Below the pieces are notes generated by a model that worked only from the letters and a program-made list of their open reading frames with translations, searched no databases and was not told the DNA's origin. From contig NZ_CP047931.1 in assembly GCF_014280175.1 (NCBI RefSeq), positions 1,860,001-1,892,000 on the forward strand: a stretch of DNA of 32,000 bases, written 5' to 3'. This DNA is from Synechococcus sp. A15-28. Lineage in GTDB: Bacteria > Cyanobacteriota > Cyanobacteriia > PCC-6307 > Cyanobiaceae. Below, one piece after another: positions 12,057 through 32,000 of this stretch. Position 1 is the stretch's first letter, and the number at the start of each line of letters is the position of its first letter. Both the position numbers and the translations under genes were made by a program.

Positions 12057-12170
12057 ATGAAGGTGCGCAGCTCAGTCAAGAAAATGTGTGACAAGTGCCG
12101 GGTGATTCGTCGCCACGGCAAGGTCATGGTCATTTGCGCCAACCCTAAGCACAAGCAACGCCAGGGCTGA
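12057..12170 (+). CDS. rpmJ: 50S ribosomal protein L36
   Basis: Manual translation, below the ORF-track size cutoff: [37 protein letters not shown], 37 aa. Confidence 0.95.
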
Positions 12171-12283
12171 CTCCCAGCCCCAGTCAGACCTAGGCGGATC
12201 CCTGAATCCCAGCTTTCGGCCTGCACAGCAACAATCACCGCCTCCGCTTCAAGGAGGCATTTGTCCCTCTCATTCAAATCTTC

Positions 12284-12649: not shown

Positions 12650-12685
12650 TCCCCCCCTCGTCCTTTACACGACCGTTTCCGGCCC

Positions 12686-13078: not shown

Positions 13079-13122
13079 ATCGCACCAATTCCCGGTTTAC
13101 GCCCCCTACCCCGCATCAGACC

Positions 13123-14061: not shown

Positions 14062-14108
14062 GATCGGCCTACCTGACCCCTTTCCCGACATCCGTCTCCG
14101 ACAGAACC

Positions 14109-14459
14109 ATGCGTCACCAATGCCGAGTTCCCCAGCTGGGCCGTCCTGCTGACCAGCGCAAGGCGATGCTCCGCGCCCTCACCACCCAGCTGATCCGCGA
14201 AGGTCGGGTGACCACCACCAAGGCCCGCGCCAAGGCCCTGCGCGACGAAGCGGAGCGGATGATCACCCTCGCCAAGGACGGCAGCCTGGCCTCCCGTCGT
14301 CGGGCTCTGGGCTACATCTACGACAAGCAATTGGTGCACGCTCTGTTCGACAAGGCACCCGACCGCTACAGCGACCGCAAGGGTGGTTACACCCGCATCA
14401 CCCGCACGGTGCCCCGTCGTGGCGACAACGCCGAGATGGCGATCATCGAACTGGTCTGA
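14109..14459 (+). CDS. rplQ: 50S ribosomal protein L17
   Basis: [45 protein letters not shown]. Confidence 0.98.
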
Positions 14460-15387: not shown

Positions 15388-15531
15388 TTGCTGCTCTTCT
15401 CATCAGGAGAAGGGCCCTGTCGAAGAGTAAGCTCGATCCTTGAGCTCCCGTCAGGTCCTCCTCTGGACCAGACCATCCCTGACCAGCTCTGCCATCCCGG
15501 CTGAGCAATTCCGAACCGGCATGCCGGCGCG

Positions 15532-15984
15532 ATGAACAAGACCTCCCTTCCTCAGACTGATTCTCTCGATCGCCAGTGGTATCTGGTGGACGCTGAGAAC
15601 AAGACCCTCGGGCGCCTCGCCACCGAGGTTGCCGCTGTTCTGCGCGGCAAAAACAACCCGAGCTTCACCCCCCATCTGGACACCGGCGATTTCGTCGTGG
15701 TGGTGAATGCCGAGAAGATCCGGGTGAGTGGCAGCAAGCCAACCCAGAAGCTGTATCGCCGTCACTCCGGTCGTCCCGGCGGCATGAAGACCGAAACCTT
15801 CGAGGCGCTGCAGGAGCGCATCCCCGAGCGGATCGTTGAAAAGGCGATCAAGGGCATGCTTCCCCACAACGCCCTCGGCCGTCAGATGTTCCGCAAACTC
15901 AAGGTGTACAAGGGCAGCGAGCATCCCCATGCCGCCCAGAAGCCTCAGCCTCTTCAGCTCAACCCCTCTGCATCCGCCCAATGA
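15532..15984 (+). CDS. rplM: 50S ribosomal protein L13
   Basis: [33 protein letters not shown]. Confidence 0.98.
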
Positions 15985-16382
15985 GCAGCAATTCCGTCGT
16001 CTACTGGGGCACTGGTCGCCGTAAGACCTCCGTCGCCCGCGTTCGCCTTGTCCCCGGCAACGGCACGATCACCATCAATGGTCGTCCTGGTGACAACTAC
16101 CTGAATTACAACCCCGCCTACATCGCAGCGGTGAAAGCTCCCCTCGAGACCCTCGGTCTCGGCACGGAGTACGACATCCTCGTCAACGTTCACGGTGGCG
16201 GACTCACCGGCCAGTCGGGAGCCATCAAGCAAGGAGCCGCCCGTGCTCTCTGTGAATTGTCAGCCGACAACCGCAAGCCCCTCAAGACCGAAGGCCACCT
16301 CAGCCGTGACCCCCGAGCCAAGGAACGTCGCAAGTACGGTCTCAAGAAAGCTCGTAAGGCTCCTCAGTTCTCCAAGCGCTGA
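15981..16382 (+). CDS. rpsI: 30S ribosomal protein S9
   Basis: [16 protein letters not shown]...[25 protein letters not shown]; ATGA overlap with rplM. Confidence 0.98.
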
Positions 16383-16392
16383 TTTTCTACCC

Positions 16393-16647
16393 ATGCCCAA
16401 GCCCGACATCCATCCCACCTGGTATCCCGATGCCAAGGTGATCTGCAACGGCGAAGTTGTGATGACCACCGGCTCCACCCAGCCGGAGATTCACGTCGAC
16501 GTCTGGAGTGGCAACCACCCCTTCTTCACCGGCACCCAGAAGATCCTTGACACCGAAGGCCGCGTCGATCGCTTCATGAAGAAGTACGGCATGGGCAAGA
16601 AGAAGGCTGGCGACAAAGCCAAGGCCGAGGCCAAAACAGACGCGTAG
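16393..16647 (+). CDS. rpmE: 50S ribosomal protein L31
   Basis: Internal Met (16393) of ORF 16195..16647: MPKPDIHPTWYPDAKVICNGEVVMTTGSTQPEIHVDVWSGNHPFFTG. Confidence 0.95.
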   Translation: MPKPDIHPTWYPDAKVICNGEVVMTTGSTQPEIHVDVWSGNHPFFTGTQKILDTEGRVDRFMKKYGMGKKKAGDKAKAEAKTDA

Positions 16648-16667
16648 TTCTGATGTGAGCCCGGGGC

Positions 16668-17765
16668 ATGGACGCCTCGACCCTTGTTGCGCGGCTTGAG
16701 GCCGCTACAGCCAGCTTCCGCAACCTTGAGCGGCAGCTGGCTGATCCTGATGTGGCGGCCGACCCCACACGATTGGAAAAAATTGCCCGGGAACGGGCAC
16801 GGCTCGAACCCCTGGTGCTCGGCTTCGAAGAGCTGCAGGGATTGGAAGAAGAGCAGCAACAGACGCGCGAGCTGCTGAAGGAAAGCCGCGGGGATGCAGC
16901 CATGGAGGAGCTGGCCCAGGAGGACCTTGCCAGCCTCAACAGTCGCCACGCCGAGCTGACTGAGACGCTCACCCTGGCCCTGTTGCCCCGTGACCCCCGC
17001 GATGAACGCAGCGTCATGCTGGAGATCAGAGCAGGGGCGGGTGGCGATGAAGCCTGCATCTGGGCCGGTGATCTGGCGCGCATGTACGAGCGATACAGCC
17101 AGAAGCTGGGCTGGAACGTACAACCCATCAGCAGCAATGAAGCGGACCTGGGGGGATTTCGGGAACTGATCCTCTCGGTCAAGGGGGACAGCGTGTTCAG
17201 TCAGCTCAAGTTCGAAGCCGGAGTGCATCGGGTGCAGCGGGTCCCGGCCACCGAATCCCAGGGACGCGTTCATACCTCCACAGCCACCGTCGCCGTGATG
17301 CCCGAGGCTGATGCCGTGGAGGTGCAGCTGGACCCCAAGGATCTGGAGATCAGCACCGCCCGCTCCGGCGGAGCCGGTGGCCAGAACGTCAACAAGGTGG
17401 AAACCGCCGTGGACCTGCTCCACAAACCCAGCGGCATCCGTGTGTTCTGCACCCAGGAGCGTTCACAGCTGCAGAACCGGGAACGGGCCCTGGAGATCCT
17501 GCGAGCCAAGCTGCTGGAGCAGGAGCAACGGGAGGCGGCAGCGCGCGAGAGCAGCGACCGGCGCGCCCAGGTGGGTAGCGGAGATCGCAGTGAAAAGATC
17601 CGCACTTACAACTACAAGGACAACCGCACCACCGATCACCGGCTGGGCAGGAACTTCTCCTTGGAACCCGTGCTGGACGGTCAGCTCGAGGATTTGATCG
17701 GTGCCTGCATTGCGGACGAGCAACGGCAGAAACTGGAAGCCCTCAGCCAACAGAGCGAAGACTGA
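16668..17765 (+). CDS. prfA: Peptide chain release factor 1
   Basis: 365 aa; [17 protein letters not shown] (GGQ motif) and [12 protein letters not shown] (PxT-type recognition region). Confidence 0.97.
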
Positions 17766-18348: not shown

Positions 18349-19479
18349 ATGTCGGAGCTAAGTCCACGCCAGCGCGCCTGGTTGGAGGTTTCCCCCACAG
18401 CCATCGAGGCCAACTGCCGGCTGCTGCGCCATCAGCTGGCGCCAGGCTGTCAATTCATGGCGGTGGTGAAAGCCGACGGCTATGGCCATGGCGCCGTCAC
18501 TGTGGCGCGAGCCGCTCTCCGCGGTGGCGCTTCAAGCCTCGGGGTGGCCACTCTTCAAGAAGGTCTGGAGCTCCGCACCGCCGGCATCGAGGCCCCAGTG
18601 CTGATCCTCAGCGCCCTTCGAAGCCCGGAGGATCTCAGCTGTTGCCTGGACGGGCGACTGATGCCCACCCTGAGCGGCCTGGACGAGGCGAAGACCGCCG
18701 CAGCGATCGCCGCTGAACGGGGAACCGATCGCTTTCCGGTGCAGCTGAAACTCGACACGGGCATGGCCCGACTGGGGGGCGAATGGCAGGAGGGCGCTGG
18801 GTTGGTGCAATCCATCCGCGCCCTGCCGCAGCTGGAGCTGGTGGGCCTCTACAGCCACCTCGCCTGCGCAGACGAGCCCGATGATCAGCTCACCCAAGTG
18901 CAGCTGCAGCGCTTTCGATCTGTCATTGAGGCCCTGCCGGATGGCGGCAGGGGCCTGTGCTGCCATCTGGCCAATTCCGCCGGCACCATGCAGTCCCCCA
19001 GCCTGCACCTGGACATGGTGCGGGTCGGTCTGGCCCTCTACGGCCAAGCCCCCGCCAGCCACCTCGGGCGGGACCTTCCACTGCAGCCTGCCTTGGCGGT
19101 GAAGGCACGTGTCAGCCTGATCCGGGAGGTGCCGAGCGGCAGCGGCGTCAGCTACGGCCATCGCTTTGTCACCAGTCGTCCATCGCGTCTCGCCGTGATC
19201 GGGATCGGCTATGCCGACGGCGTGGTCCGGGCCCTGAGCGGCCGAATCGAGGTTCTGCACGGCGGCCGCAGGCTGCCGCAGGTGGGCAACATCACCATGG
19301 ACCAGATCATCCTGGATGCCACCGATGTTGATGACCTGACAGTGGGTGACATCGTCACGCTGCTGGGGCAGGACGGATCTGAACGCATCAGTCCAGAGGA
19401 GTGGAGCACTCGCTGCAACACGATCCCCTGGGAAATCCTCTGTGGTTTCAAACATCGCCTGCCGCGGGTCGAGATCTGA
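18349..19479 (+). CDS. alr: Alanine racemase
   Basis: 376 aa; AVVKADGYGHG (PLP-lysine motif), SYGHRF, and the C-terminal TIPWEILCG pattern. Confidence 0.95.
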   Translation: MSELSPRQRAWLEVSPTAIEANCRLLRHQLAPGCQFMAVVKADGYGHGAVTVARAALRGGASSLGVATLQEGLELRTAGIEAPVLILSALRSPEDLSCCLDGRLMPTLSGLDEAKTAAAIAAERGTDRFPVQLKLDTGMARLGGEWQEGAGLVQSIRALPQLELVGLYSHLACADEPDDQLTQVQLQRFRSVIEALPDGGRGLCCHLANSAGTMQSPSLHLDMVRVGLALYGQAPASHLGRDLPLQPALAVKARVSLIREVPSGSGVSYGHRFVTSRPSRLAVIGIGYADGVVRALSGRIEVLHGGRRLPQVGNITMDQIILDATDVDDLTVGDIVTLLGQDGSERISPEEWSTRCNTIPWEILCGFKHRLPRVEI

Positions 19480-19516
19480 CCGACTGTCCAACGCTTGGTA
19501 AGCTGGGTATGCAACT

Positions 19517-19605
19517 GGAGAGGTGGCTGAGTGGTTGAAAGCGGCTCCCTGCTAAGGAGTTACAGGAGGCAACTTCTGTCGAGGGTTCGAATCCCTCCCT
19601 CTCCG
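19517..19605 (+). tRNA. tRNA-Ser (anticodon GCU), class II with a long variable arm; CCA not encoded
   Basis: Acceptor ggagagg / cctctcc plus discriminator g. Anticodon stem gctcc / ggagt with loop cTGCTaa. Variable arm acaggag-gcaa-cttctgt. T arm gaggg-ttcgaat-ccctc. Folded by eye. Confidence 0.9.
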
Positions 19606-19855
19606 TTGAAAACCTGATTTAGGAGTTCTCAGAAGATCCCAAATCTGGCCAAATCAAAGACCACCACTGGGAAGTGCATCCCTAGGGAGCTTCCATTGTG
19701 CCCCGAAGTCCCTTCGTTGTCATGGGGGAATTTGTGGGGGAACCGGTCTCATAGCAAACCAGGCAGTCTGACTGCGCGGCAATGGATCCCAAGCGAACAT
19801 GTGGGGGATAAGCATTCACCAAGCCGACATCGACCATCTCAGGTCCAAGCCATCC

Positions 19856-20119
19856 ATGTCACTCCGCAAGAACTTCGACTCATTCACCTCAGAGCACAAG
19901 CTCCGTGACGCTCAGGAGGAATTCACGCACGCCGTTTATCGGTTTCGGGCAGCAGAGGAGGTCAAGGCCCCGAATCTGATCGCCTTGAAGCGAGAAATGG
20001 AGTTCTTAGAACGGAAGGTCGAGTACTGCCGGCAATGCGTCTATGCGGGACAACCGGTTGAGGAATACGCCGAATGGTCTGAGCTTCCAGAGCGGTGCCC
20101 TAAGCCAGCTTGGGCTTGA
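19856..20119 (+). CDS. Hypothetical protein (87 aa from the internal Met; the track ORF starts at 19799)
   Basis: Only an ORF in the first island segment: MSLRKNFDSFTSEHKLRDAQEEF...CRQCVYAGQPVEEY. No recognisable family. Confidence 0.4.
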   Translation: MSLRKNFDSFTSEHKLRDAQEEFTHAVYRFRAAEEVKAPNLIALKREMEFLERKVEYCRQCVYAGQPVEEYAEWSELPERCPKPAWA

Positions 20120-20176
20120 AGCTCTGGGCGCTGACGCGGCGAAAGCAGATGGGCTGGATAACTGCACTGTTTGTTC

Positions 20177-20199
20177 AAAAAAATGCCCCTCGACGGGGC
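20177..20199 (-). terminator. Putative intrinsic terminator read on the minus strand (GCCCC-5nt-GGGGC followed by a run of 7 T)
   Basis: The plus strand reads aaaaaaa t gcccc tcgac ggggc. On the minus strand this is a 5-bp all-GC hairpin followed by ATTTTTTT. No annotated minus-strand gene lies upstream of it. Confidence 0.3.
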
Positions 20200-20369
20200 G
20201 CTTGCTTGCCGACTGCCAATGCGATTGCCCCTGAGCAAGACGGCAAGACCTTTCAGGACAGGGGGAAGGATGCAGTGGTGGAGAAAGTTATGGATGGCAA
20301 CTGAGGAGATGTTCTCGACTGCACAAGCGGGCTAACCATTGGCATCCTTAGCTAAGAAGTCAGGCTCTG

Positions 20370-20531
20370 ATGGCACGAATCGGCAACAAAAAAGCGTTCA
20401 CCATCCATCTGAGCGATGAGATGGCGGCAATGATTGACCTCAAGCGCAAGGAGTGGGGCCTCAAAAGTCGAGGTGAAGTGATAGAGCGGCTTCTCGGTTG
20501 GATGATTGAGCCCACCGATTCCGATGGGTAG
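20370..20531 (+). CDS. Ribbon-helix-helix (CopG/Arc-like) small DNA-binding protein, 53 aa
   Basis: Manual translation, below the track cutoff: MARIGNKKAFTIHLSDEMAAMIDLKRKEWGLKSRGEVIERLLGWMIEPTDSDG. It shows a strand (KAFTIHL) then two helices. Its stop overlaps the start of the next ORF (ATGGGTAG). Confidence 0.6.
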   Translation: MARIGNKKAFTIHLSDEMAAMIDLKRKEWGLKSRGEVIERLLGWMIEPTDSDG

Positions 20532-20976
20532 TCGCAACGTCTCAGACCTGATCAAGCAACTCTTTGAGATCTCACGACAACTAGAGGCTGAGATCCCAGG
20601 CAGAAACTTTCTTCCCAGCGGTCAACAACTTGGAAACCTTGGAGAGGTCTTAGTTGCTGAGGCTTTCGGACTAAACCTTTGCAAGGCAATGACGAAGGGA
20701 ATTGATGCCCATACAGAAGATGGGCGAATGGTTCAGATCAAGACTGTTACGAGCAGATCTGCTGGGGTCCATCTCTCCAAGCGGCGTCCCAGCGTGAACA
20801 CGTACCTAATCGCAATCGAACTCAAACCAGATGGCACCTTTGAGGTGATCTACAACGGGCCTGAGATGCATGCGTGGCTTGTTCGCCAGTCAGGGAAGCC
20901 ATTCGTCTCGATGGGTCCTTTCCTGAAAGCTGCTGAAGCAATTCCGATGGACAAGCAACTCCCCTGTGTTGATTAA
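20524..20976 (+). CDS. Hypothetical protein with a PD-(D/E)xK-like (restriction-endonuclease-fold) signature, about 150 aa
   Basis: ORF 20506..20976, likely starting at 20524 (MGSRNVSDL). GNLGEVLVAEAFGL...KGIDAHTEDGRMVQIKT...YLIAIEL resembles an E...D...(Q/E)xK core. The third motif has Q rather than D/E, so catalytic status is uncertain. Confidence 0.6.
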   Translation: MGSRNVSDLIKQLFEISRQLEAEIPGRNFLPSGQQLGNLGEVLVAEAFGLNLCKAMTKGIDAHTEDGRMVQIKTVTSRSAGVHLSKRRPSVNTYLIAIELKPDGTFEVIYNGPEMHAWLVRQSGKPFVSMGPFLKAAEAIPMDKQLPCVD

Positions 20977-21073
20977 CAGGGCTAACCCCTGACCAAGCGT
21001 CAGAGGCGTGGCGGGAAAGCTTGGAACGAAGGAGGAGTGCTGAGGCCAGACTGGAGATGACTCAATCACCGTG

Positions 21074-21691
21074 ATGAACGAGGGCATCGTCTACGTCCTG
21101 ACCAATCCCGCCATGCCGAAGCTGGTGAAGATCGGAAAGACAGGTCGTGGTGTCGAGACGCGTCTGAACGACCTCTACACAACTGGCGTACCCCTGCCGT
21201 TTGAGTGCGCCTATGCCGCAAGGGTGGAGGACATGGACAAGGTGGAGAAAGCCTTCCACAACGCCTTTGGGCCATACAGGGTCAACCCAAGAAGGGAGTT
21301 CTTTGAGATTGAGCCCGAGCAGGCGATTGGGCTGCTGGATCTGATGAAGTTGGAGGACATGACTCCGGCAATGCAGGCTGAAGCCGAACAGGTGGACGTT
21401 CAGGCGAAAGCCTCAGCAGAGAAGCTCAAGCGTTCTCGTCGCCCCAACCTCAATTACATAGAGATGGGCATCCCTATTGGAAGCACCCTTCTGTATCAAG
21501 GGGATGGAGAGACCACTTGCACAGTTGCCGATGGCCGCAACGTCAGCTTTGAAGGGAGGACCCTCTCACTGACCAAGCTGACCAAAGAGCTACGACAGCA
21601 GCCAGATCGACCAATTCGCGGCCCTGCTCATTGGTCTTACAACGGACGACTTTTGGGGGAAATGTACGAAGAGACTTACGGAGAAGACTGA
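21074..21691 (+). CDS. GIY-YIG / T5orf172-family nuclease-like protein with a C-terminal extension
   Basis: GIVYVLTNPAMPKLVKIGKTGRGVETRLNDLYTTGVPLPFECAYAARVEDMDKVEKAFHNAFGPYRVNPRREFFEI is the T5orf172-type GIY-YIG pattern. GTG at 21071 is an alternative start. Confidence 0.8.
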   Translation: MNEGIVYVLTNPAMPKLVKIGKTGRGVETRLNDLYTTGVPLPFECAYAARVEDMDKVEKAFHNAFGPYRVNPRREFFEIEPEQAIGLLDLMKLEDMTPAMQAEAEQVDVQAKASAEKLKRSRRPNLNYIEMGIPIGSTLLYQGDGETTCTVADGRNVSFEGRTLSLTKLTKELRQQPDRPIRGPAHWSYNGRLLGEMYEETYGED

Positions 21692-21830
21692 TCTACATCC
21701 AACGCAATATTAGAAGAAGAGGCCAGCATCAAGGCGACTCAATGAAGCGAGATACTGGCTAAGAGTTCTGAATAGGAAGCTGATTCTCCCGCAATGACAA
21801 TGTCAACCTGTCCGCACTGCTGAAGCTTGA

Positions 21831-21859
21831 TTGACAAATTTAATAAACCAATTTAATAT
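21831..21859 (+). promoter_or_regulatory. Near-consensus sigma70-type promoter (TTGACA - 17 nt - TAATAT)
   Basis: ttgaca at 21831-21836, a 17-nt AT-rich spacer, and taatat at 21854-21859. Pattern match only. Confidence 0.4.
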
Positions 21860-21909
21860 AAATGCATTGCAAGGCAGTCGCTTGCGATATCACTTACCTT
21901 ATCTTTAAG

Positions 21910-22191
21910 ATGAAATCAACGAAATCTGCATGGTCTACCCACCTGGGCTTTAATATCTCCAAAGCAAAGCAAGAGCTTGGCGATGAGTTCCCAAGAAACT
22001 ACAACTCGCTCCTCAAAAAATGCGTATTAAGCGAAACTTCTAAACAAATCCTAGACATATATGCCGGGGACAAACGCTCACCAATTGATTACGATGCTTT
22101 CCTTGCGAGATTCTGCGACAAAGCCAAGTACAGGGCTGGAGTTATCGAGGCGATAAAGTGGACTCTTGAAGCCATGCAGCTTGGCAACTGA
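21910..22191 (+). CDS. Hypothetical protein, low-GC (93 aa from the second Met; the track ORF starts at 21862)
   Basis: ORF in AT-rich DNA: MKSTKSAWSTHLGFNISKAKQELG... The ATG at 21862 sits only 2 nt after the predicted -10 box, so 21910 is preferred. Confidence 0.45.
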   Translation: MKSTKSAWSTHLGFNISKAKQELGDEFPRNYNSLLKKCVLSETSKQILDIYAGDKRSPIDYDAFLARFCDKAKYRAGVIEAIKWTLEAMQLGN

Positions 22192-22252
22192 ATGATCTCG
22201 TCAATCCACAACTCGCAGTGGTAGAAAATAATTAGCGCGCCATCCCACCAGC

Positions 22253-22495
22253 ATGGCAACCCGCCTGATCACACCGAGCCAGCTGTCACTGTTCAGCATC
22301 AGCCCAGTGATCGGGGCCTGGTGGGAAGAGTTGCAGGCGCAGAATCTGTTTGAAGGCAGCAAGCCAGCGGTGAGTGAGCTGGATCAGCAGCTGGTGGCCG
22401 AATACGAGGCAAGGGGCGACTGGCTGCCCACCCCTCAACCTGCGAAAGCCAGTGCCAACAGACGTCAAGCAAAAGCACCCACCCGCTGTGGTTAG
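22253..22495 (+). pseudogene. Truncated 5' fragment of a RecB-like nuclease/helicase gene, paralogous to the start of 24095..27571
   Basis: Residues 6-47 (ITPSQLSLFSISPVIGAWWEELQAQNLFEGSKPAVSELDQQL) match residues 6-47 of the 1158-aa ORF with one substitution. It then diverges into 33 unrelated codons and a stop. Confidence 0.6.
22267..22393. repeat. Direct repeat copy 1 (127 bp, 120/127 identical to 24109..24235)
   Basis: Hand alignment of the two segments gives 7 mismatches and no gaps. Confidence 0.9.
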
Positions 22496-22677
22496 GTAGA
22501 ACCAACCACCACAGCACTTGTGCCTCGGATCAGGCTGTCGACGTAGTTCTGAACTATCAGCTCGATCTGTCCAGTGGCGCCCTTCCCATTACTAAAGGCA
22601 TCAACAATCAACTGAGGCCGCCAATAGAACAGCAGTGTAATGGCGCTCATATCCGCAATCACTGATCACAGCATTCT

Positions 22678-23196
22678 TCATCTTTTTACTTGACCTGTCA
22701 TCGTTATTTCCAGCGTTGGCTCTTCACTACAAATGCCGCAGACAAAATACCTAGCAAACTGATTGTCGGAAAAAAAATTCCATCCATCAGGCATCTTTTG
22801 TGTGAGCCTAAATGGCCTGAATCTTTCATTTTCTTCCGTCGTCAATATGGTGACCCTATCCGTCCAATCGAGGATTTTTGCAATTTGCACTACGTCATGC
22901 CTGTTGTTTACAATTTTTCTTCCAATCTCATTAGAAGGCACTGGGTGCTCATAAGTAAACTTATTTTTTTGCGATTTTAGCCCCCTTCTGAGCTTGCCAT
23001 CTCTCAGGAATCCGCTCCGGTCAAGGTATTCAATAGAGGACTCTGTGGCAAGATACGTATCTTTGGCAAGGCTATACTTTGCAATATAATTAAGAAGACC
23101 ATACCTAATTGTGTGATCTTCGTACATCCTATCAAACCCATCAATTTTTACTATGGAGCAAATAACTGTGTACAAGTCTTTTTGAAGTAAGTTCAT
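22678..23196 (-). CDS. Hypothetical protein, low-GC, 172 aa; possible His-Me finger (HNH/DUF1524-like) motif
   Basis: FTYEHPVPSN...(about 30 aa)...VTILTTEENERF resembles the (D/E)H-x2-P ... N-x-L-x3-N pattern. This is a weak motif-level call only. Confidence 0.55.
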   Translation of the reverse strand: MNLLQKDLYTVICSIVKIDGFDRMYEDHTIRYGLLNYIAKYSLAKDTYLATESSIEYLDRSGFLRDGKLRRGLKSQKNKFTYEHPVPSNEIGRKIVNNRHDVVQIAKILDWTDRVTILTTEENERFRPFRLTQKMPDGWNFFSDNQFARYFVCGICSEEPTLEITMTGQVKR

Positions 23197-23217
23197 CGCA
23201 AAATCCCCTCTTGGAGC

Positions 23218-23817
23218 TCACTGATTTTCATAATATGGATCTCTGTATTGAGTTGTAAGGTTGGTGATGGGAGATATATCCCAGAGATGATCCATGTCAA
23301 AACCTTCGCTATGAGCAATGGTTTCAGATTGCTTGTTTTCTTCGAAGCTGCCGGGGTGCACTCCCACTTCGCCATCATCTCCAATGCAGAAGTAGTCATC
23401 CCAAAAGCCTTCAAGAATATTTTGGCATTGGGCATCCTGATCGCTCCATTCAGGGCATGCCGCTTCTTCGGTGTAAAGATGACTACCTTTTGGCGTAGTT
23501 TTTGCGCCCTTCCATTCTCCTCCCGAAGAGTCTGAATAAAGCCAGAGTGAGTTGTTTCCATCACGCCTGAACAGGTAATCGCTTTGCATTCCGCCCCCAG
23601 AGTATCCATAGGCAAGTGCAGCTACCTCTTGCGTCTTTTCTCCATCTTCGTTGATGAAACCATCAAGAACAACATACAAAACAGCTACAAGAAGCTTTGA
23701 CTTACTCTCGTCAGAAAATTCGCAGAAAAATTCGGTTTCACTGATTCTGAGCGGCATGGCCTGTGAGCAAGTAAGTTGATTATAACTTAATAGATGCTTG
23801 GGTACCAGTAGAGGCAT
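23218..23817 (-). CDS. Hypothetical acidic Trp/Asp/Glu-rich protein, low-GC, 199 aa (an alternative start at 23757 gives 179 aa)
   Basis: Ends 21 nt upstream of the 172-aa ORF on the same strand, an operon-like arrangement. No family recognised. Confidence 0.5.
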   Translation of the reverse strand: MPLLVPKHLLSYNQLTCSQAMPLRISETEFFCEFSDESKSKLLVAVLYVVLDGFINEDGEKTQEVAALAYGYSGGGMQSDYLFRRDGNNSLWLYSDSSGGEWKGAKTTPKGSHLYTEEAACPEWSDQDAQCQNILEGFWDDYFCIGDDGEVGVHPGSFEENKQSETIAHSEGFDMDHLWDISPITNLTTQYRDPYYENQ

Positions 23818-24043
23818 TGTTTCTTGATTTATTCAGGAGCCATCTTCTCCCTGCCTCAATATGCACGAAAGCGAGGATTTCGTAGGCGGTGGACGCAATT
23901 GCCCGCTAGATGTGCGCATTGAATATCCCAATGAAACCAATTGCATTTTTCATTGGGAAAGTTTTTTGTTCGCTTGTGACGAGAGGATCTGTACGCAAAG
24001 AAATGATTTTATTTTTGCAGTCTTTGAACTACTAAATGAGTCT

Positions 24044-24072
24044 TTGACGCTGCGCTTTTATACTCATATTAT
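24044..24072 (+). promoter_or_regulatory. Near-consensus sigma70-type promoter (TTGACG - 17 nt - TATTAT) upstream of the helicase operon
   Basis: ttgacg at 24044-24049, a 17-nt spacer, and tattat at 24067-24072, about 22 nt before the TTG start at 24095. ggtgag (24081-24086) is a possible SD. Confidence 0.4.
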
Positions 24073-24094
24073 CTGGGCTTGGTGAGTTCTTGGC

Positions 24095-27000
24095 TTGAAC
24101 AACCGTCAGATCACCCCAAGCCAGCTGTCGCTGTTCAGCATCAGCCCAGTGATCGGAGCCTGGTGGGAGGAGCTGCAGGCGCAGAAGCTGTTTGAAGGCA
24201 GCAAGCCAGCGGTGAGTGAGCTGGATCAGCAGCTGTTTGCTGATGGCCTGCGCCACGAACAGGTACTGCTCACCAAGCTGGAAAAAGAAGGCCGCGGCAT
24301 TGCCCGGCTGCCCGGCAAACAAACCGAAGCCGATTACGCCGCCACCCGCCAGGCGATGACAGAGGGGGTGGAGTTCATCCACCAGGCCTCGCTATGTAAT
24401 GAGGAGATGCGCGGCAGTGCCGACCTGCTCAGGCGCATTGATCGCCCCTCATTACTGGGGGAGTGGAGCTACATCCCTATCGAGTGCAAGCTCGCCAGCA
24501 AACCGAAAACTACCTTCCTGGTGCAGGCTTCGGCCTACTGCGAAATGCTCACTCCATTGCTGGGGCATCGGCCCGATCAGTTCGAGCTCTATCTCGGCGG
24601 CGGCAAATTCCAGCCCTTTGGCACCGATCAGTTCTGGGCTTGGTACCAACTGCTGAGGCAGCGCTACCGCCAGTTCCGTGAGAGCTTCGATCCAGCGGTG
24701 ATTCCCGAGGATGCACCGGGGGATCACGGCGGCTGGTCGACGTTCATCGATCAACGGCTCGAAGAAGCGCGCGATCTGATGCTGGTGGCGGGCATGCGCC
24801 AGAGCCAGCGCCAGAAGCTGCGCGCTGCTGGCATCACCTCAATTGAGGAACTCGCAGCTGTTCCTGGTGGCACCGCTATCACCGGCCTGAATGGAGAGGC
24901 CCTACATGAGCTGCGCCAACAGGCCGAACTACAACTGCAGCCTGTGGATGCTGATGGCCGTCCGGCCTATCGCCTCAGGCCTATTGAAACCGGCAAAGGC
25001 CTTGCAGCTCTGCCGGCGCCTGATGCCGGCGACATCTGGTTCGACATGGAAGGGGTTCATGACCCGGTGAGCGGCAGCAAGCTCGAATACCTGTTTGGCG
25101 CCTGCTACCGGAATACCCCAGAGGGAAAGCCGTTGTTCAAGGCGTTCTGGGCCCATAGCGAAGCAGAGGAAAAACGCGCCTTCGAGGGGTGGGTGGATTG
25201 GGTGGAAGAACGACGCCGCCAGTGCCCGGGCCTGCGGATCTATCACTACGCCGCCTACGAGAAAACAGCGATGCGGCGCTTGGCGCAACAGCACGCCACC
25301 CGAGAAGCCGAGATCGATTCCTGGCTGCGCAACGAACTGCTTGTGGACCTGCTGCCAATCGTGACCAGCTCGATCGTTCTGGGCGAACCCAGCTACTCGA
25401 TCAAGAAGGTGGAGCACCTTTATATGGGTGCCCGCCATGCGGGGGTGACAAACGCCGGCGATTCAGTAGTGGCCTACCTGCACTGGCAGCTCTCCGGTGA
25501 GCCGGAGATGCCCGGAGAAGCGCCGGACGCCAGCCCGAAGCTGCAGGCGATTGAGGACTACAACCAAGAAGACTGCAAAAGCACGGTGTTCCTGCACGAC
25601 TGGCTGCTGAAGCTCAGGCGTGAGCAAGGCCTGCCGGATCAGCCCCTGCAGCTACCTCTGGATGAGGCTGCTCAGGAGCCACGGGAACCACAACCCCTCG
25701 AGCTGCTCAGCCAACAGCTACTCGAAGAAATCCCTGATCACCTGGCGGATAAACGTGCACTGGGTCCGCGCGGGATGAGCTGGCGGGCCCACAGGCTGCT
25801 GGCTCAGCTGCTGCCCTTCCATCACCGTGAAGCGAAGGTGGGCTGGTGGGCCTATTTCGATCGCCGCTCCAAGGCTGAACTCAGCCCATCGGAGCTGATC
25901 GACGACGGCGAAGCGATTGCCGACGCCCAATGGGTGGGGATGGACGAACGCCCCAGTGCTCGCACCGGCGCCGACATTCACCACTTCCGCTTTGACCCCA
26001 GCCAACCGCTGAAATTGCATGCCGGCGATGGCGACGGCCGGCTCACCGTTGAACTGCCCGCCACCAGCCTGAAGCTGGATGTGGATGCGCTCGATGCCGA
26101 ACGGGGAACGCTGAGCTTGAAGCTGCCCTGGAGCAAGCGCGATCAACGCCTCGCCAACGGCGAGGGCGAGGGCATCCCCAAAGACGCCACCTCGGTGATC
26201 AAGGTGCCGGCCGACATCAGCAAGAGCCTGCGCGAACGGCTGGAGGAGCAGGCCATGGCGTGGGTGCACGAGCACCAGCCGATCCCCCCAGCGATCCTGC
26301 AACTGCTGGAACGGCAACCCCTGCCGGCACTGCAAGAGCTCAATGCAGCCATTGCCGGGGATCCCAACGCCATTGCGGATGCCCTGGCGGGGTTTCTGCA
26401 GGAGCACTCCGGCATCAGCCTGGCGCTGCAGGGGCCACCGGGCACGGGTAAAACCACCGTCACCGGCCAGGTGATCGCCCAACTGGTGGCATCAGGCCAA
26501 CGGGTGGCAATCAGCTCCAACGGCCACGCCGCCATCAACAACCTGCTCAAGAAAGCCAAGAGCACCTGCAGCGCTGCAGGGGTGGCCGGCGAAGTGGTGA
26601 AGTGCAACAACAGCAAAGAAGAGGCGCTGAGCGCCGCAGGCATCAGCGTGGTGAAGCCCGGCCAACTCACGGAGGCCATGGCGGTGGTGGGTGGCACCAC
26701 CTGGATGTTCTGCAAAGAGGAGCTGGCGGATCAGTTCGATTGGCTGGTGGTGGATGAGGCGGGGCAGATGTCGCTCGCCAATCTGCTGGTGATGGCGCGT
26801 TGTGCCCGCTCGATCCTGCTGGTGGGCGATCAGCAGCAACTGGCCCAGCCCTCCCAGGCCGATCACCCCGGCGATTCAGGCCAAAGCTGCTTGGAGTACT
26901 GGATGGAAGGCGCCTCGGTGGTGCCAGACGATCGCGGCGTGTTTCTCTCCACCAGCTGGCGGATGGAACCAAGCCTCACCGCAATGGTGAGTGCGCTGTT

Positions 27001-27571
27001 TTATGAGGGCCGGCTGCAGGCCAGCTCCGCCAATTGCAGAAATCGCATCACATGGGCCACACCCTGCCAAGGCAGTGACGGACAGCTATACCCAAATCAA
27101 GGCCTGGAGTTTGATCCGGTGGCGCACAGCGGCAACAGCGTCTGCAGCGAAGAAGAAATCAACCGCATCGAAACGTTGGTGGATGCGCTGCTGGGGGGCC
27201 GCTACCAACACGCCAAAGCCGGGGGCATCGCAGCAGGCACGCTGACGCCAGACCAGATACTGGTGACGGCGCCCTACAACGTGCAGGTGAACCGGCTGCA
27301 GCAACGGCTGAATGGCAAAGCCCGGGTGGGCACGGTGGACAAGTTCCAAGGCCAGGAGGCACCCGTTGCCATTCACTCCTTAACGGCGAGCAGCGGCGAT
27401 GAAGCACCGAGGGGGCTGAGCTTTCTGCTGGAGCCGAACCGCTTGAACGTGGCGATCAGCCGCGCCCAATGCCTTTCGATCGTTGTGGGCTCACCCAGCC
27501 TGGCCAGCGGCATCGCCAACACGGTGGCGGAGGCCGAGCAGATCAATCGGTTGTGTGAGGTGATGGGCTGA
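24095..27571 (+). CDS. Fusion protein (1158 aa): RecB/Cas4-like PD-(D/E)xK nuclease, RNase H-like exonuclease module and SF1 (Upf1/Dna2-like, AAA_11/AAA_12) helicase; TM0106-family-like N-terminal half
   Basis: TTG start, the only start after the in-frame TGA at 24083. D110...E130-C-K132 (SADLL...IPIECKLASK); GITSIEELA (HhH-like); IWFDMEG and EDYNQEDC acidic motifs; LQGPPGTGKTT (Walker A, nt 26431-26454); LVVDEAGQM; VDKFQGQEAPV; LNVAISRA. Confidence 0.9.
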   Translation: MNNRQITPSQLSLFSISPVIGAWWEELQAQKLFEGSKPAVSELDQQLFADGLRHEQVLLTKLEKEGRGIARLPGKQTEADYAATRQAMTEGVEFIHQASLCNEEMRGSADLLRRIDRPSLLGEWSYIPIECKLASKPKTTFLVQASAYCEMLTPLLGHRPDQFELYLGGGKFQPFGTDQFWAWYQLLRQRYRQFRESFDPAVIPEDAPGDHGGWSTFIDQRLEEARDLMLVAGMRQSQRQKLRAAGITSIEELAAVPGGTAITGLNGEALHELRQQAELQLQPVDADGRPAYRLRPIETGKGLAALPAPDAGDIWFDMEGVHDPVSGSKLEYLFGACYRNTPEGKPLFKAFWAHSEAEEKRAFEGWVDWVEERRRQCPGLRIYHYAAYEKTAMRRLAQQHATREAEIDSWLRNELLVDLLPIVTSSIVLGEPSYSIKKVEHLYMGARHAGVTNAGDSVVAYLHWQLSGEPEMPGEAPDASPKLQAIEDYNQEDCKSTVFLHDWLLKLRREQGLPDQPLQLPLDEAAQEPREPQPLELLSQQLLEEIPDHLADKRALGPRGMSWRAHRLLAQLLPFHHREAKVGWWAYFDRRSKAELSPSELIDDGEAIADAQWVGMDERPSARTGADIHHFRFDPSQPLKLHAGDGDGRLTVELPATSLKLDVDALDAERGTLSLKLPWSKRDQRLANGEGEGIPKDATSVIKVPADISKSLRERLEEQAMAWVHEHQPIPPAILQLLERQPLPALQELNAAIAGDPNAIADALAGFLQEHSGISLALQGPPGTGKTTVTGQVIAQLVASGQRVAISSNGHAAINNLLKKAKSTCSAAGVAGEVVKCNNSKEEALSAAGISVVKPGQLTEAMAVVGGTTWMFCKEELADQFDWLVVDEAGQMSLANLLVMARCARSILLVGDQQQLAQPSQADHPGDSGQSCLEYWMEGASVVPDDRGVFLSTSWRMEPSLTAMVSALFYEGRLQASSANCRNRITWATPCQGSDGQLYPNQGLEFDPVAHSGNSVCSEEEINRIETLVDALLGGRYQHAKAGGIAAGTLTPDQILVTAPYNVQVNRLQQRLNGKARVGTVDKFQGQEAPVAIHSLTASSGDEAPRGLSFLLEPNRLNVAISRAQCLSIVVGSPSLASGIANTVAEAEQINRLCEVMG
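24109..24235. repeat. Direct repeat copy 2 (127 bp), inside the 5' end of the 1158-aa ORF
   Basis: See copy 1. 6 of the 7 differences are synonymous in the shared frame. Confidence 0.9.
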
Positions 27572-30500
27572 TGGATGTCTTTTCCTTCCGAGACCGGGTT
27601 ATTGAGGACTACGGCCAGTTCTCGCGCAGCTTCACCCAGATCAAATCGCCCGATCTCCAGTCGTTTGTGGACGGGACCTATGGCAAGGGCGAGTACTGGC
27701 CGTCACCACTCATCCAGCTGAATCCAAGCTTTGTGAGCGGCGGCGCCATCAGCAAGCTGGTGGACACAGGGCTCCTTCATCCGGAATGCAGCCGGATCTT
27801 CCGCTGGGGTAAGGACAACGGCACTGGTCAGGAACTCCAGTTACACCGCCACCAGCGCGATGCCATTGAAATTGCCAGCCGTGGCGGCAGCTTTGTCGTG
27901 ACGTCGGGCACGGGCTCCGGTAAGTCGCTGGGTTACATCATTCCGATCGTGAATCGGGTTCTGGAAGCGCGCGCGCGAGGGGATCAGCAGAAACGCATTC
28001 GGGCGATTGTGATTTATCCGATGAATGCACTGTGCAATAGCCAGCAAGAGGAATTACAGAAATATCTCGGCCTTGGCTATCCGGAAGGACCGAAAGTCAC
28101 TTTTGCGCGATATACAGGTCAGGAAAGCGATGAAGAGCGGGAGAAGATCAAGAATGATCCCCCCGACATCCTGCTCACCAACTATGTGATGCTCGAGTAC
28201 ATCCTGACCCGGCAGGATCCACTCGATCAGAAAGTCATCGGCGACGCCAAGGGACTGGAGTTCCTGGTGCTTGACGAGTTGCATACCTATCGAGGGAGGC
28301 AGGGTGCGGACGTCGCACTCTTGGTACGCCGAGTCAGACAACGACTGAATGCCAATCTGCTCTGCATTGGCACCTCGGCCACCATGGCCTCAGAAGGCAC
28401 GGCCAAGGAACGCAATGCCACCGTGGCGCATGTTGCAAGCAAGCTTTTTGGCACCGAAATCCCCAGCGAACACATCGTCACGGAGACGCTGCAGCGCTGC
28501 ACTGAAGGTGATCTTCCCAACCAGGAAGAGTTAACCCAGGCCCTAAGAGTTGATTATTCGACTCAAGTAACCGAAACCTGGACAGCTGAAGATTTACGCC
28601 AGCACCCTCTCGCCCGCTGGGTTGAGTTGAAGCTCGGCCTCGAGAAAGAAGACGGGTTGCCTGATGGCAAATGGGTGCGCTGTAAGCCGCACACCCTTCA
28701 GCAGGCCACCAGCACATTGGCCGAGCAAACAGGGCTAAATGAGGAACAGATCCTGGCAACGTTGAGGGATTTCCTTCTGGCTGCCTATCAGGTGGAAGTT
28801 GGACCGAATCGGCGCTTTTTTGCCTTTCGCCTGCATCAATTTGTCTCCGCAGGCGGCGAAGTGCAAGCATCTCTCCAAGCCCCTCAGAAACGCTATCTCA
28901 CGCTGAAGGCGCAGAAGTACCAACCCAATGCCGGGCGCCAGGCACTGCTCTACCCGGTTGTGTTCTGCCGGAACTGCGGGCAAGATTTTCACCCGGTGTG
29001 GGCCCATCTCAATAACAAGATTCCAGTCAATATCGATCCACGCGATTTCAAAGACGAATCAAGTCTTCGCGAACGGGATGTGGTGAATGGCTACTTCATG
29101 CCCGATGCCAACGGTGAATACACCATCGATGACTTGGAGAAAGCCAACTTTCCCGATGGTTGGCTTGAGCCTGACAAGAATGACGAGCTTGTCCTGAAGC
29201 GCACGTATCGGGAGTTTGCCCCGGTGCCTTGTCGTTTTCGCTCCGATGGAGGTGCGAGCAGTGATGGGCTTTCCGGCTGGTTTCTGAAAGGGAGTTTCCG
29301 CTTCTGCCCAAGCTGTGGTGTGGAGCACGGGGTGCGCAGCAGCGAATTTCGCAAGCTTTGTGGGCTCAACTCAGAAGGCCGCAGCTCCGCCACGACCACC
29401 TTGAGCCTGGCGGTGCTGAGGCAACTGCTGGCGTTCCCAGCGAAGGAGATCCCTGATCAGGCCCGCAAACTGCTGGCCTTCAGTGACAACCGGCAGGACG
29501 CATCACTGCAGGCCGGCCACTTCAACGATTTTGTGCGGGTTCTGCAGCTACGGGCAGGCCTCATTGCCGCATTGAGCGCGCAATCCGAGAAGGAACTGAG
29601 CCTTGAAACCCTGGCGCAGGCCGTGGAAAAAGCCCTACGGCTCGATGCGGAAGACTTCATCGCCATTCCCAACGTCAAACCCAACATCGAGCAAAGCAAT
29701 CGCCGTGCTCTGCGGGGAGTGTTGGAGTACCGGCTGATGGTGGACCTGCGCAAAGGCTGGCGGCTCACCAATCCCAACCTCGAGCAACTGCGGTTGCTTG
29801 AAGTGGATTATGCGGAGCTAGTGAATTGTGCAGAAGACCAGGAGGACTGGGGGCAGCGCCATCCTTTGCTGGCTCAAGCGAGCAGTGAAGAACGGTTCCT
29901 GATCTGCCATCGCCTCCTGGAAGAGCTCAGGGAACGACTTGCGATCGACTGTGATGCACTGATTCAAGAGGAATTCGAACGGCGCAAGAAGTCAGCAACC
30001 GATCTTGAGGAGGTCTGGAGCATCGGCCGCGAGGAGAAGCCAGAGCTGGCCCGCAGTGTGGTGACAAGCCCAGTCCCCCAGGAGCTCAGAAACCGTGGTG
30101 TTGAAGGCTTATCGCTCCGTGGTGAATTCGGTCGCTGGCTGAAGGCACGCGAACGCTGGCTCTCGGCAGAAGACCTCTACCGAACCCTGAAATGGAAGGA
30201 CGACCTCTACCAAGAGGTGATGGGTCACATCCTCGAGATGCTGTCGGCATGGGGCCTTGTGAAGACCGTGGACGTGCGGCTTGGCCGCAAGGCTCGTGAG
30301 GTGATGCAAGGTTGGCGCCTCAACAGCACTGCTCTGCGTTGGACTCTGGTGGACCCGGAATCACCACCTCAGGACCGCTACGCCGCGTGTTTGGAACAAG
30401 TGCGGCAGAACAGTGGGCGACGTGGGCCGGTCAACCCCTACTTCCGAAGTCTCTACGCCGACCTCGCCCATCTGATCGCAACAGAAGGCCGACCATTCCT

Positions 30501-32000
30501 GCAGACGCTGTCCGCACGGGAGCACACAGCCCAAGTGGATGCGAGTGAGCGCGAACGACGGGAAGATGACTTCCGCAGTGCTGCCCTGCGGCTGATGTAC
30601 TGCTCACCCACGATGGAATTGGGCGTTGATATTTCATCGCTCAACACTGTTTACATGCGCAATGTGCCGCCCACGCCGGCGAACTATGCGCAGCGCAGCG
30701 GACGCGCCGGCCGTAGCGGGCAACCAGCTCTGGTGTTGAGCTATTGCGGTGCCACCTCACCCCACGACCAGTACTTTTTTGCGGATCCAGTGCGGATGGT
30801 GGCGGGTGCTGTAAGTGCTCCAACGCTGGAATTGGCCAATGAAGAGTTGCTCAAGGCCCACTTCCGGGCGCTTTGGCTGGCAGCCACTCGGCAGCGCCTG
30901 CCCGGGAAGGTGAAGGAGCTGGTGAACATCAGTGCCCCAGGGCGGCCAGTTCAAGCAGAGCTGATGGAGGCCCTCTCCAGGGATGAGGCCTACCGCTCAG
31001 CCCAGGCTGATTGCCAGGCCATCGTTGACGACCTGATCGAGAAGCAATGCCTCGGAAGCACGCCACCGCCATGGCTCACAGGCAGCTGGCTAGAAGCGAT
31101 CACCCATGGCGCCGCGCTGGATTTCGAGGCCGCGCTCAGCCGCTGGCGTGAGCTTCTTGAGGCAGTGGATGGTCAGATCAACCAGGCACTCAAAGATCTG
31201 GGGAACCACGCCATCAGCGAGCGGGAGCGTCTGGCCGCCGACACCCGCCTCAAAGCAGCACGAATGCAACAACAGTTGCTGCTGGCGGATAAGCCAGGAA
31301 GCGGCAACAGCAACAACGACTTCAGCACCTATCGCTACCTGGCAAGCCAAGGCTTCATGCCGGGGTACAACTTCCCGCGTCTGCCGCTGATGGCGTACAT
31401 CCCTGGCACACGAGAACAAGTGGGCGGCGGCACTTACATCACTCGCCCGCGGTTTGTCGGCATCAGTGAATTCGGTCCCCACTCACTGATCTATCACGAG
31501 GGGAACACCTACAAGGTGAAAGGTGCACTGCTGGGGTTGCAGGACAACGCGGCTGCAGCCGGATCAGCCACCCTCGCCACGCAGGACGCCTTGGTGTGTG
31601 GGGCCTGCGGCCATGCCCATCTCGGTAATGCCGCTGAATCAGAACTGTGTTGCCACTGCGGCACACCGCTGAAGCTGCATCCCGAGGGCAAAGCCGTTCG
31701 GATCCCAAAGCTGTATCAAATCGAGCAGGTCACCACGAGGAGAGCTGATCGGATCACCTCCGACGACGAAGAACGGCAACGCCTCGGCTATGAGCTGATC
31801 ACCACCTACGAATTCCCCAAGGACAACGGGGTGGTGAAAGTGGCGAAGGCCCAGGTGAGCTGCGAGGGGCAGCCGTTACTGGAGCTCAGCTACGCACCAG
31901 CTACGCAGATCAGCCGGGTGAACCTCGGCTGGCGGCGGCGGGAGAACAAAAACGACATGGGCTTCCCGATCCACCCGATCAACGGACAGTGGGGCGGCGA
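27571..32000 (+). CDS. Large DExH-box (SF2) helicase with a DUF1998/MrfA-type zinc-binding module; partial, more than 1476 codons, running off the right window edge
   Basis: Not in the ORF track because it has no stop in the window. I translated frame 1 codon by codon from ATG 27571 to 31998 and found no stop. Motifs: TSGTGSGKS (res 111), DELH (235), TSAT (268), LLAFSDNRQDA (about 637), QRSGRAGR (1041), YRYLASQGFMPGYNFPR (1254), CGAC...CCHC (1343-1363). The ATG shares its A with the upstream TGA. Confidence 0.9.
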   Translation, partial: MDVFSFRDRVIEDYGQFSRSFTQIKSPDLQSFVDGTYGKGEYWPSPLIQLNPSFVSGGAISKLVDTGLLHPECSRIFRWGKDNGTGQELQLHRHQRDAIEIASRGGSFVVTSGTGSGKSLGYIIPIVNRVLEARARGDQQKRIRAIVIYPMNALCNSQQEELQKYLGLGYPEGPKVTFARYTGQESDEEREKIKNDPPDILLTNYVMLEYILTRQDPLDQKVIGDAKGLEFLVLDELHTYRGRQGADVALLVRRVRQRLNANLLCIGTSATMASEGTAKERNATVAHVASKLFGTEIPSEHIVTETLQRCTEGDLPNQEELTQALRVDYSTQVTETWTAEDLRQHPLARWVELKLGLEKEDGLPDGKWVRCKPHTLQQATSTLAEQTGLNEEQILATLRDFLLAAYQVEVGPNRRFFAFRLHQFVSAGGEVQASLQAPQKRYLTLKAQKYQPNAGRQALLYPVVFCRNCGQDFHPVWAHLNNKIPVNIDPRDFKDESSLRERDVVNGYFMPDANGEYTIDDLEKANFPDGWLEPDKNDELVLKRTYREFAPVPCRFRSDGGASSDGLSGWFLKGSFRFCPSCGVEHGVRSSEFRKLCGLNSEGRSSATTTLSLAVLRQLLAFPAKEIPDQARKLLAFSDNRQDASLQAGHFNDFVRVLQLRAGLIAALSAQSEKELSLETLAQAVEKALRLDAEDFIAIPNVKPNIEQSNRRALRGVLEYRLMVDLRKGWRLTNPNLEQLRLLEVDYAELVNCAEDQEDWGQRHPLLAQASSEERFLICHRLLEELRERLAIDCDALIQEEFERRKKSATDLEEVWSIGREEKPELARSVVTSPVPQELRNRGVEGLSLRGEFGRWLKARERWLSAEDLYRTLKWKDDLYQEVMGHILEMLSAWGLVKTVDVRLGRKAREVMQGWRLNSTALRWTLVDPESPPQDRYAACLEQVRQNSGRRGPVNPYFRSLYADLAHLIATEGRPFLQTLSAREHTAQVDASERERREDDFRSAALRLMYCSPTMELGVDISSLNTVYMRNVPPTPANYAQRSGRAGRSGQPALVLSYCGATSPHDQYFFADPVRMVAGAVSAPTLELANEELLKAHFRALWLAATRQRLPGKVKELVNISAPGRPVQAELMEALSRDEAYRSAQADCQAIVDDLIEKQCLGSTPPPWLTGSWLEAITHGAALDFEAALSRWRELLEAVDGQINQALKDLGNHAISERERLAADTRLKAARMQQQLLLADKPGSGNSNNDFSTYRYLASQGFMPGYNFPRLPLMAYIPGTREQVGGGTYITRPRFVGISEFGPHSLIYHEGNTYKVKGALLGLQDNAAAAGSATLATQDALVCGACGHAHLGNAAESELCCHCGTPLKLHPEGKAVRIPKLYQIEQVTTRRADRITSDDEERQRLGYELITTYEFPKDNGVVKVAKAQVSCEGQPLLELSYAPATQISRVNLGWRRRENKNDMGFPIHPINGQWGG

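Follow-up and report, generated by a model that had tools for sequence, protein, structure and literature searches.

armC and its place in the ARMADA family

The window (a stretch of 32,000 nucleotides of Synechococcus sp. A15-28, positions 1,860,001 to 1,892,000 of contig NZ_CP047931.1) ends inside a large gene on the forward strand (27571..32000), which we annotate as armC, a YprA-family helicase-nuclease of ARMADA type I, from its open frame, its 87-91%-identical orthologues and the listing of its relatives in a published table. We consider it highly probable that this frame encodes the N-terminal 1476 residues of ArmC, the superfamily 2 (SF2) helicase-nuclease belonging to a picocyanobacterial anti-phage system of ARMADA type I.

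Translation of the window gave 1476 codons without a stop in frame 1, from the ATG at 27571 to the window end at 32000, and by our own estimate the chance of so long a stop-free run at about 60% GC is roughly 1e-21. The start at ATG 27571 is backed by an MDVF N-terminus that is nearly invariant in an alignment of 79 sequences reaching down to about 48% identity, which was used for all statements on conservation below. Orthologues of 87-91% identity cover all 1476 residues in tblastn alignments that have no gaps; therefore the frame contains no frameshift or missed stop, and the long open frame claimed from this ATG in the first-pass annotation is real. That annotation was also right that the open reading frame (ORF) track omits the gene; the listing leaves out ORFs that run off the sequence. 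All the motifs and cysteines it had named were found where it had placed them. Full-length ArmC is expected to comprise 1807-1816 (about 1810) residues, of which the window holds residues 1-1476 (~80%). Judged from the orthologues, the last ~335 residues, with the MZB/DUF1998 site and the Vsr-like nuclease, would lie beyond the window end.

A homologue search covering 5.8 billion proteins returned thousands of relatives. The full-length homologues have 1736-1876 amino acids (aa), with DEAD, Helicase_C and MZB (PF09369) domains and DUF559 in some, and are thus much longer than MrfA (751 aa), as had been noted from the open frame. The closest relatives, with 87-91% identity, are found in freshwater picocyanobacteria of the Cyanobium/Synechococcus/Vulcanococcus group, and more distant ones, of ~47% identity, are known from Magnetococcales, Gemmatimonadota and Alphaproteobacteria, among other groups. 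Pfam models recognize only DEAD (residues 93-274, E 5.8e-28) and Helicase_C (980-1050, E 9e-13) in the window ORF.

The ARMADA systems were defined around a YprA-like helicase by Bell et al. in a September 2025 preprint (bioRxiv, PMC12458937). The label 'ARMADA Type I helicase' stands in Table S1 of that work for MBD1194497.1 (contig JACVZV010000024.1), and this contig holds our locus L001, which encodes an orthologue 89% identical to the window protein. Five further accessions carrying the same label in Table S1, namely ABK44516.1 (Magnetococcus marinus), MBF0614661.1, GIX15834.1, MCX8087040.1 and MBX7133455.1, correspond to our homologues P0043, P0042, P0067, P0097 and P0102 respectively, and are 47-50% identical to the window protein with 100% query coverage. 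It is on this listing of its relatives, rather than on a tree, that the window protein can be assigned by sequence to the ARMADA type I clade.

A different name is returned by PADLOC, where the best models for armC are DruE3 (4.7e-96) and DruE1 (1e-80), and the best sequence match in the PDB is E. coli DruE (9TU7). Together with an upstream gene that overlaps the armC start codon by 1 nt, these matches would allow the window protein to be read as DruE of Druantia type III with the upstream gene as its partner, a reading to which we give hardly any credence. The model matches are fragmented and partial, reaching 321 bits as against 720 bits for a genuine DruE in locus L068, and PADLOC-DB v2.0.0 dates from 2023, two years before ARMADA was named, when DruE was probably the nearest model available to it. 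The upstream gene encodes a RecB-like nuclease/SF1 helicase without a PADLOC match to DruH, and it is absent at the closest armC loci. The C-termini of the orthologues carry MZB and DUF559/Vsr-like domains instead of PLD domains, SNF2 and methyltransferase genes lie downstream of the orthologues, and the relatives are entered as ARMADA type I in the source paper. Membership of Druantia type III was rejected, as no DruH match was found for the upstream gene and no PLD domains at the C-termini of the orthologues. DISARM membership was rejected as well; DISARM carries its helicase and DUF1998 on two genes (DrmA/DrmB) and has a PLD nuclease (DrmC) besides, whereas helicase and MZB occur in one polypeptide in the armC orthologues, and the weak hits of DrmA models (1e-13) are confined to the motif V/VI block.

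The proper annotation of the gene is thus armC of ARMADA type I, in place of the DruE that 2023-era models return. The armC gene, its split-RecA2 architecture, the extra zinc modules and the operon are already known; the ArmC family and its operon were described in 2025 (PMC12458937), and a cryo-EM structure of the sister protein DruE followed in 2026 (bioRxiv 10.64898/2026.05.13.724758). The finding therefore has little discovery value and its usefulness is mainly practical, the window adding to ARMADA type I a copy from the picocyanobacteria, hosts for which defence against cyanophages is of ecological importance.

Domain architecture and zinc sites of ArmC

The YprA-type SF2 core is intact, with motifs I, II, III, V and VI all present and invariant in the 79 homologues. 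Two AlphaFold2 (AF2) models were used, one of residues 1-1200 (predicted local distance difference test score, pLDDT, 83.1; predicted template modelling score, pTM, 0.74) and one of residues 296-985 (pLDDT 84.7; pTM 0.73), and MrfA (PDB 6ZNP) was the best Foldseek match of the AF2 model, with E 1e-9. All the domains described here lie on the forward strand. The RecA1 lobe (residues ~91-295; 27841..28455), which is covered by the Pfam DEAD match, contains motif I (GTGSGKS, 113-119), motif II (DELH, 235-238) and motif III (SAT, 269-271).

Two large blocks interrupt the remainder of the core, one of about 300 residues separating RecA1 from RecA2 and the other lying within RecA2 itself. A helical domain was placed 3' of RecA1 from the AF2 model and the published domain order (residues ~300-408, with approximate limits; 28468..28794), and it is modelled mostly as helix with two short strands at a pLDDT of about 85-94. 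The next domain is an all-beta zinc-binding module (residues ~409-600; 28795..29370) identified by its AF2 strands, which make up almost all of residues 409-573, by its invariant cysteines and by alignment to the solved chain 9wae_A. This 'Helicase' chain (PDB 9wae, 1970 aa) was not traceable to any publication. RecA2 opens with a short first segment (residues ~601-645; 29371..29505) holding the motif IV-like LLAFSDNRQDA at 634-644, of which F637, D639, N640, R641, Q642, D643 and A644 are invariant and which matches SDSRQDA of 9wae_A in the sequence alignment.

An insertion of ~340 residues follows within RecA2 (residues ~646-981; 29506..30513), delimited by the AF2 model and the published domain order, and it consists of long helices and a beta hairpin (897-926) with a pLDDT mostly of 85-97. 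The large insertion that had been proposed inside the second RecA lobe is thus present, at about residues 645-982. The second RecA2 segment (residues ~982-1110; 30514..30900) contains REHTAQV (983-989), motif V (MELGVDI, 1015-1021) and motif VI (QRSGRAGR, 1041-1048); it coincides with the Helicase_C match and aligns to residues 1077-1198 of DruE 9TU7. Beyond it lie a helical domain with approximate limits (residues ~1111-1240; 30901..31290), placed on AF2 helices from 1129 to 1199 and of a helical/HTH (helix-turn-helix) kind present in all YprA homologues (PMC12458937), and the first part of the OB-CON canopy (residues ~1241-1476; 31291..32000) with one inserted zinc module.

The motif V/VI stretch (residues 1014-1049; 30610-30717) has a pLDDT of only 38-50 in the 1-1200 model although it is the most conserved part, unlike the poorly conserved insertions, which are modelled with high confidence. 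The low values may be an artefact of modelling this part of the protein without the full canopy.

The first-pass annotation had regarded this layout as atypical and specific to the family. The 'interrupted' core is in fact the normal layout of the ARMADA/Druantia clade, as the published description of the clade (PMC12458937) gives a BrxA-like helical domain after RecA1, a beta-barrel zinc-binding module (ZBM) with at least two CxxC at the RecA2 start, an adjacent MarR-like domain within RecA2, a helical domain after RecA2 and an OB-CON-DUF1998 canopy with extra zinc modules, ending in a Vsr-type nuclease in ARMADA. The order of the AF2 blocks (helical at 300-408, all-beta at 409-600, helical/winged at 646-981) agrees with it. 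By analogy, the helical domain at ~300-408 may correspond to the BrxA-like domain of Bell et al. and to the winged-helix (WH) domain of DruE, and the RecA2 insertion may correspond to the MarR-like domain and to the duplex-binding domain of DruE with its dimerisation helices. A Foldseek search with the insert (residues 296-985) gave no match below E 0.5 and returned only weak winged helix-turn-helix regulators (AbfR2, PadR, Pex), so that both labels, BrxA-like and MarR-like, come from the literature.

DruE of Druantia type III-A (E. coli EDL933; PDB 9TU7-9TUC) belongs to a sister YprA clade with the same split-RecA2 layout, and its sequence matches the armC family profile with E 1e-66. By sequence, RecA1 of DruE (98-318) pairs with residues 93-296 of the window protein and its motif V/VI block (1077-1198) with residues 983-1105, and the gap between the two is about 760 residues in DruE as against about 690 in the window protein. 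Counterparts of the WH, zinc-binding, duplex-binding and dimerisation domains, zinc modules in the OB region and an MZB site are common to both. The insertions and great length are accordingly shared with a well-characterised protein, the 2108-aa DruE, and the earlier suggestion that they are sensor or partner-binding domains of this family stands only in part, in that they are constrained accessory modules for handling DNA, as in DruE, but not family-specific ones. The two proteins differ in that DruE ends in two PLD domains where the ArmC family has a Vsr-like nuclease, carries two zinc motifs each in its double zinc-binding domain (dZBD) and its OBZ domain where the window protein has one conserved four-cysteine site per region, and has DruH as its partner where ArmC has an SNF2 helicase and a methyltransferase. 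MrfA/YprA of B. subtilis and DrmA/DrmB of DISARM also share the SF2 core and canopy principle, MrfA being without the inserted domains or the nuclease.

Two CxxC knuckles were found in the all-beta module, FCRNCG at residues 465-470 (C466/C469; 28966-28977) and FCPSCG at 578-583 (C579/C582; 29305-29316). A conservation check of these four cysteines, as proposed with the first-pass annotation, found all of them invariant. Both knuckles and the SDxRQDA motif align to 9wae_A. Since residues ~409-600 contain no further conserved cysteine and only one conserved histidine, C466, C469, C579 and C582 probably form a single four-cysteine zinc site.

A second group of cysteines (1343, 1346, 1360, 1361 and 1363) is present in a zinc module spanning 31597-31659, where the family consensus C-x2-C-x13-C-x2-C is nearly invariant at residues 1343-1363 and aligns to the CxxC in the OB region of 9wae_A. 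In ARMADA type I one ZBM is inserted in the OB region (PMC12458937), and by sequence C1343, C1346, C1360 and C1363 are assigned to this OB-region zinc module, distinct from DUF1998/MZB. The cluster had been taken for the DUF1998 zinc site; this was a mis-assignment, as MZB maps beyond the window end in the orthologues, and the cluster should not carry the DUF1998 name. The full-length orthologue in L006, which is 91% identical, has Pfam MZB (PF09369) at residues 1525-1621 (2e-9 to 2e-10). The MZB segment of DruE, DCSCDKFCHHCLLSY (1684-1725), aligns to the family segment CEAGCYRCLLSY at profile positions 1581-1622. Three MZB cysteines of DruE have been mutated, namely C1681, C1683 and C1687 (bioRxiv 10.64898/2026.05.13.724758).

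At the C-terminus, a PDF...IDGPHH...D motif is nearly invariant in the alignment, and Vsr-like PF04480/DUF559 domains are recognized in the relatives L017, P0041 and P0054 with E values of 3e-6 to 7e-6.

Operon partners and proposed mechanism

An SNF2/RapA-like helicase gene follows armC on the same strand in all 48 related loci with enough DNA, and a PglX/DrmMI-like N6-adenine methyltransferase gene also follows in each of the 41 loci where the DNA extends far enough. In L006, the SNF2 protein is matched by PADLOC DpdE (4e-194), as well as DrmD and BrxHII, and by Pfam SNF2-rel_dom, while the methyltransferase is matched by PADLOC DrmMI (1.5e-65) and PglX and by Pfam Eco57I and N6_Mtase. The published gene order of type I is armC, SNF2 helicase, methyltransferase (PMC12458937), as in the related loci. 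Family, domain order and the operon order in relatives are those of ARMADA type I ArmC (representative WP_108720193.1), with no substantive difference. The window copy differs from the published systems in having an unrelated nuclease-helicase gene abutting its start, and these picocyanobacterial loci keep the standard order as opposed to the reversed gene order reported for many cyanobacteria (PMC12458937).

In several ARMADA type I loci (L001, L002, L008, L011 and L013), armC and the SNF2 gene are separated by an additional ~2 kb. In L001, a gene for a 654-aa GmrSD_N (DUF262) protein was found inside the operon (15451-17415; Pfam 2.9e-31), and its product is a candidate modification-dependent nuclease.

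The validated relative is the ARMADA type II system of E. coli NCTC 12900/EDL933, whose ArmC is likewise a YprA-like helicase with a C-terminal Vsr-type nuclease and whose partners, a BrxHII/RapA-like helicase and a PglX-like methyltransferase, are as in type I. Type II differs in its strict armA-armB-armC-armD order, in having a fourth gene, which encodes a GajB-like helicase with RelE, and in the extra inactive EEP/Vsr domains of its ArmC. Protection by the E. coli system depends on every gene, on the Walker motifs in both ArmA and ArmC and on the ArmB NPPW motif, and it is direct, without cell death. For DruE, binding to single-stranded DNA (ssDNA) and 3'->5' DNA helicase activity have been reported; its dZBD and duplex-binding domain (DBD) form a platform holding the duplex, its helical domain dimerises, and its OBZ/MZB lid closes on the tracking strand (bioRxiv 10.64898/2026.05.13.724758).

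A mechanism for the type I system can be proposed by analogy with these two relatives, E. coli ARMADA II and DruE. The PglX-like N6-adenine methyltransferase would mark host DNA, and ArmC would engage ssDNA or 3' overhangs of an unmarked invader and translocate 3'->5', with the duplex held and split on a platform made up of the zinc beta-barrel and the RecA2 insertion. The C-terminal Vsr-like PD-(D/E)xK nuclease would then cut the DNA, the SNF2/RapA-like ATPase would act as a required partner, and the outcome would be direct, non-abortive protection.

Several points weigh against this scheme and against the type I assignment behind it. The published experiments cover ARMADA type II only and not type I, and methylation-based discrimination of self from non-self has not been demonstrated for any system in the ARMADA literature consulted. 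Bell et al. mark the Vsr-like domain as 'active?' (PMC12458937), and PF04480 reaches only E 0.004 in the closest orthologue, L006. Finally, neither the MZB site nor the nuclease domain nor either partner gene falls within the window, and their presence in this genome is presumed from the orthologues.

The TM0106 gene and the surrounding island

Immediately upstream of armC on the same strand lies a gene for an 1158-aa protein (24095..27571) with a RecB-like nuclease of the TM0106 family, an RNase-H-like domain and an SF1 (AAA_11/AAA_12) helicase. It matches NCBIfam TIGR03491 (5e-61) and the Pfam families RNase_H_2 and AAA_12, no DruH match was returned for it by PADLOC, and its TGA stop overlaps the armC ATG by 1 nt. 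A literature search on TM0106 found nothing relevant. At the closest armC loci, L001-L008 (87-91% identity), the gene is absent and the armC ATG is the exact point where homology to the window begins, while in L009 it is reduced to its last 101 codons beside an intact armC. Its role as an obligate ARMADA partner was rejected on these two observations, and we take it to be a nuclease-helicase gene in its own right, separate from ARMADA, at the flank of a variable defence hotspot.

The arrangement could also be a four-gene ARMADA variant, in which the TM0106 gene is functional and analogous to ArmD of type II (an SF1 UvrD-like helicase with RelE). The shared strand and the stop/start overlap agree with such a variant, as does the occurrence of an identical junction in three diverged loci, namely the window, L068 (85% nucleotide identity) and L009 (74%); in most of the loci inspected, picocyanobacterial TM0106 homologues adjoin BREX, type I restriction-modification (R-M) or ARMADA genes, and type II is known to depend on a fusion of an SF1 helicase with a toxin domain. 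We nevertheless hold a four-gene variant to be very unlikely, given the closest orthologue loci without the gene, the remnant beside an intact armC in L009, the heterogeneous downstream genes of the wider TM0106 family (33-38% identity) in a first look at 85 loci, and the unrelated neighbours of the TM0106 gene in L069 and L071.

The reading of the TM0106 gene as independent of ARMADA is consistent with its distribution. The gene is common in picocyanobacteria, and among L065-L075 different kinds of defence cargo lie directly 3' of it, often with overlapping stop and start codons, whereas the upstream synteny is variable. BREX genes follow it in L072/73 (BrxE-BrxA-BrxB-BrxC-PglX) and L070 (BrxA), an Mrr-like PDC-S02 gene with BrxB in L065/66, and the type I R-M genes HsdR-HsdM in L074; ARMADA I follows in the window, L068 and L009, and a convergent BREX lies downstream in L075. 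The chief alternative is that the gene is functionally tied to methylation-based systems. One speculative and rather improbable extension makes the TM0106 gene a conserved 'leader' for exchangeable defence cassettes based on methylation, with which it would cooperate or whose site of integration it would mark, and takes a 141-nt repeat at its 5' end (described below) as an exchange scar. Its recurrence beside BREX, R-M and ARMADA is the only lead in the window that might exceed the literature consulted.

Locus L068, a metagenomic picocyanobacterial contig, carries a genuine 2133-aa DruE (PADLOC DruE1, 2.8e-216), which is preceded by two genes (1299 aa and 331 aa) without a family match. The TM0106 gene and armC lie ~750 nt downstream of it, the stretches of the contig concerned being 1-9251 and 10001-14180. 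This co-localisation of Druantia and ARMADA resembles E. coli O-island 172.

Further upstream in the window, prfA (16668-17765) and alr (18349-19479) are found, and tRNA-Ser(GCT) (19516-19606) lies directly after alr. Past this tRNA the GC content falls from about 0.65 to about 0.54 over a low-GC stretch at 19607-24094, and the defence island seems to begin at tRNA-Ser(GCT). No repeat of the 3' end of this tRNA was found within the window. Two genes were annotated in the low-GC stretch. The first encodes a DUF6998 protein (20506-20976) with a weak PADLOC match (7.7e-10) to a methyl-directed type II restriction enzyme, and in L070, too, a DUF6998 gene immediately precedes the TM0106 gene. The second encodes a T5orf172/MUG113 protein (21071-21691) that matches the PADLOC candidate system PDC-S57 (3e-78).

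The 141-nt direct repeat occurs at 22261-22401 and 24103-24243 with 91% identity between its copies. The copy at 22261-22401 duplicates the 5' end of the TM0106 gene, and the ORF at 22253-22495 begins MATRLITPSQLSLFSISPVIGAWWEEL. Together with the insert between its copies, the repeat has the appearance of a scar that insertion or recombination left at the 5' end of the TM0106 gene; if the gene were indeed a 'leader', the repeat would reflect exchange of cassettes by recombination within it. The insert (22402-24102; ~1.7 kb) has a GC content of 43-45%, compared to 60-65% in its flanks, and contains two ORFs on the reverse strand (22678-23196 and 23218-23817) that have no family match.

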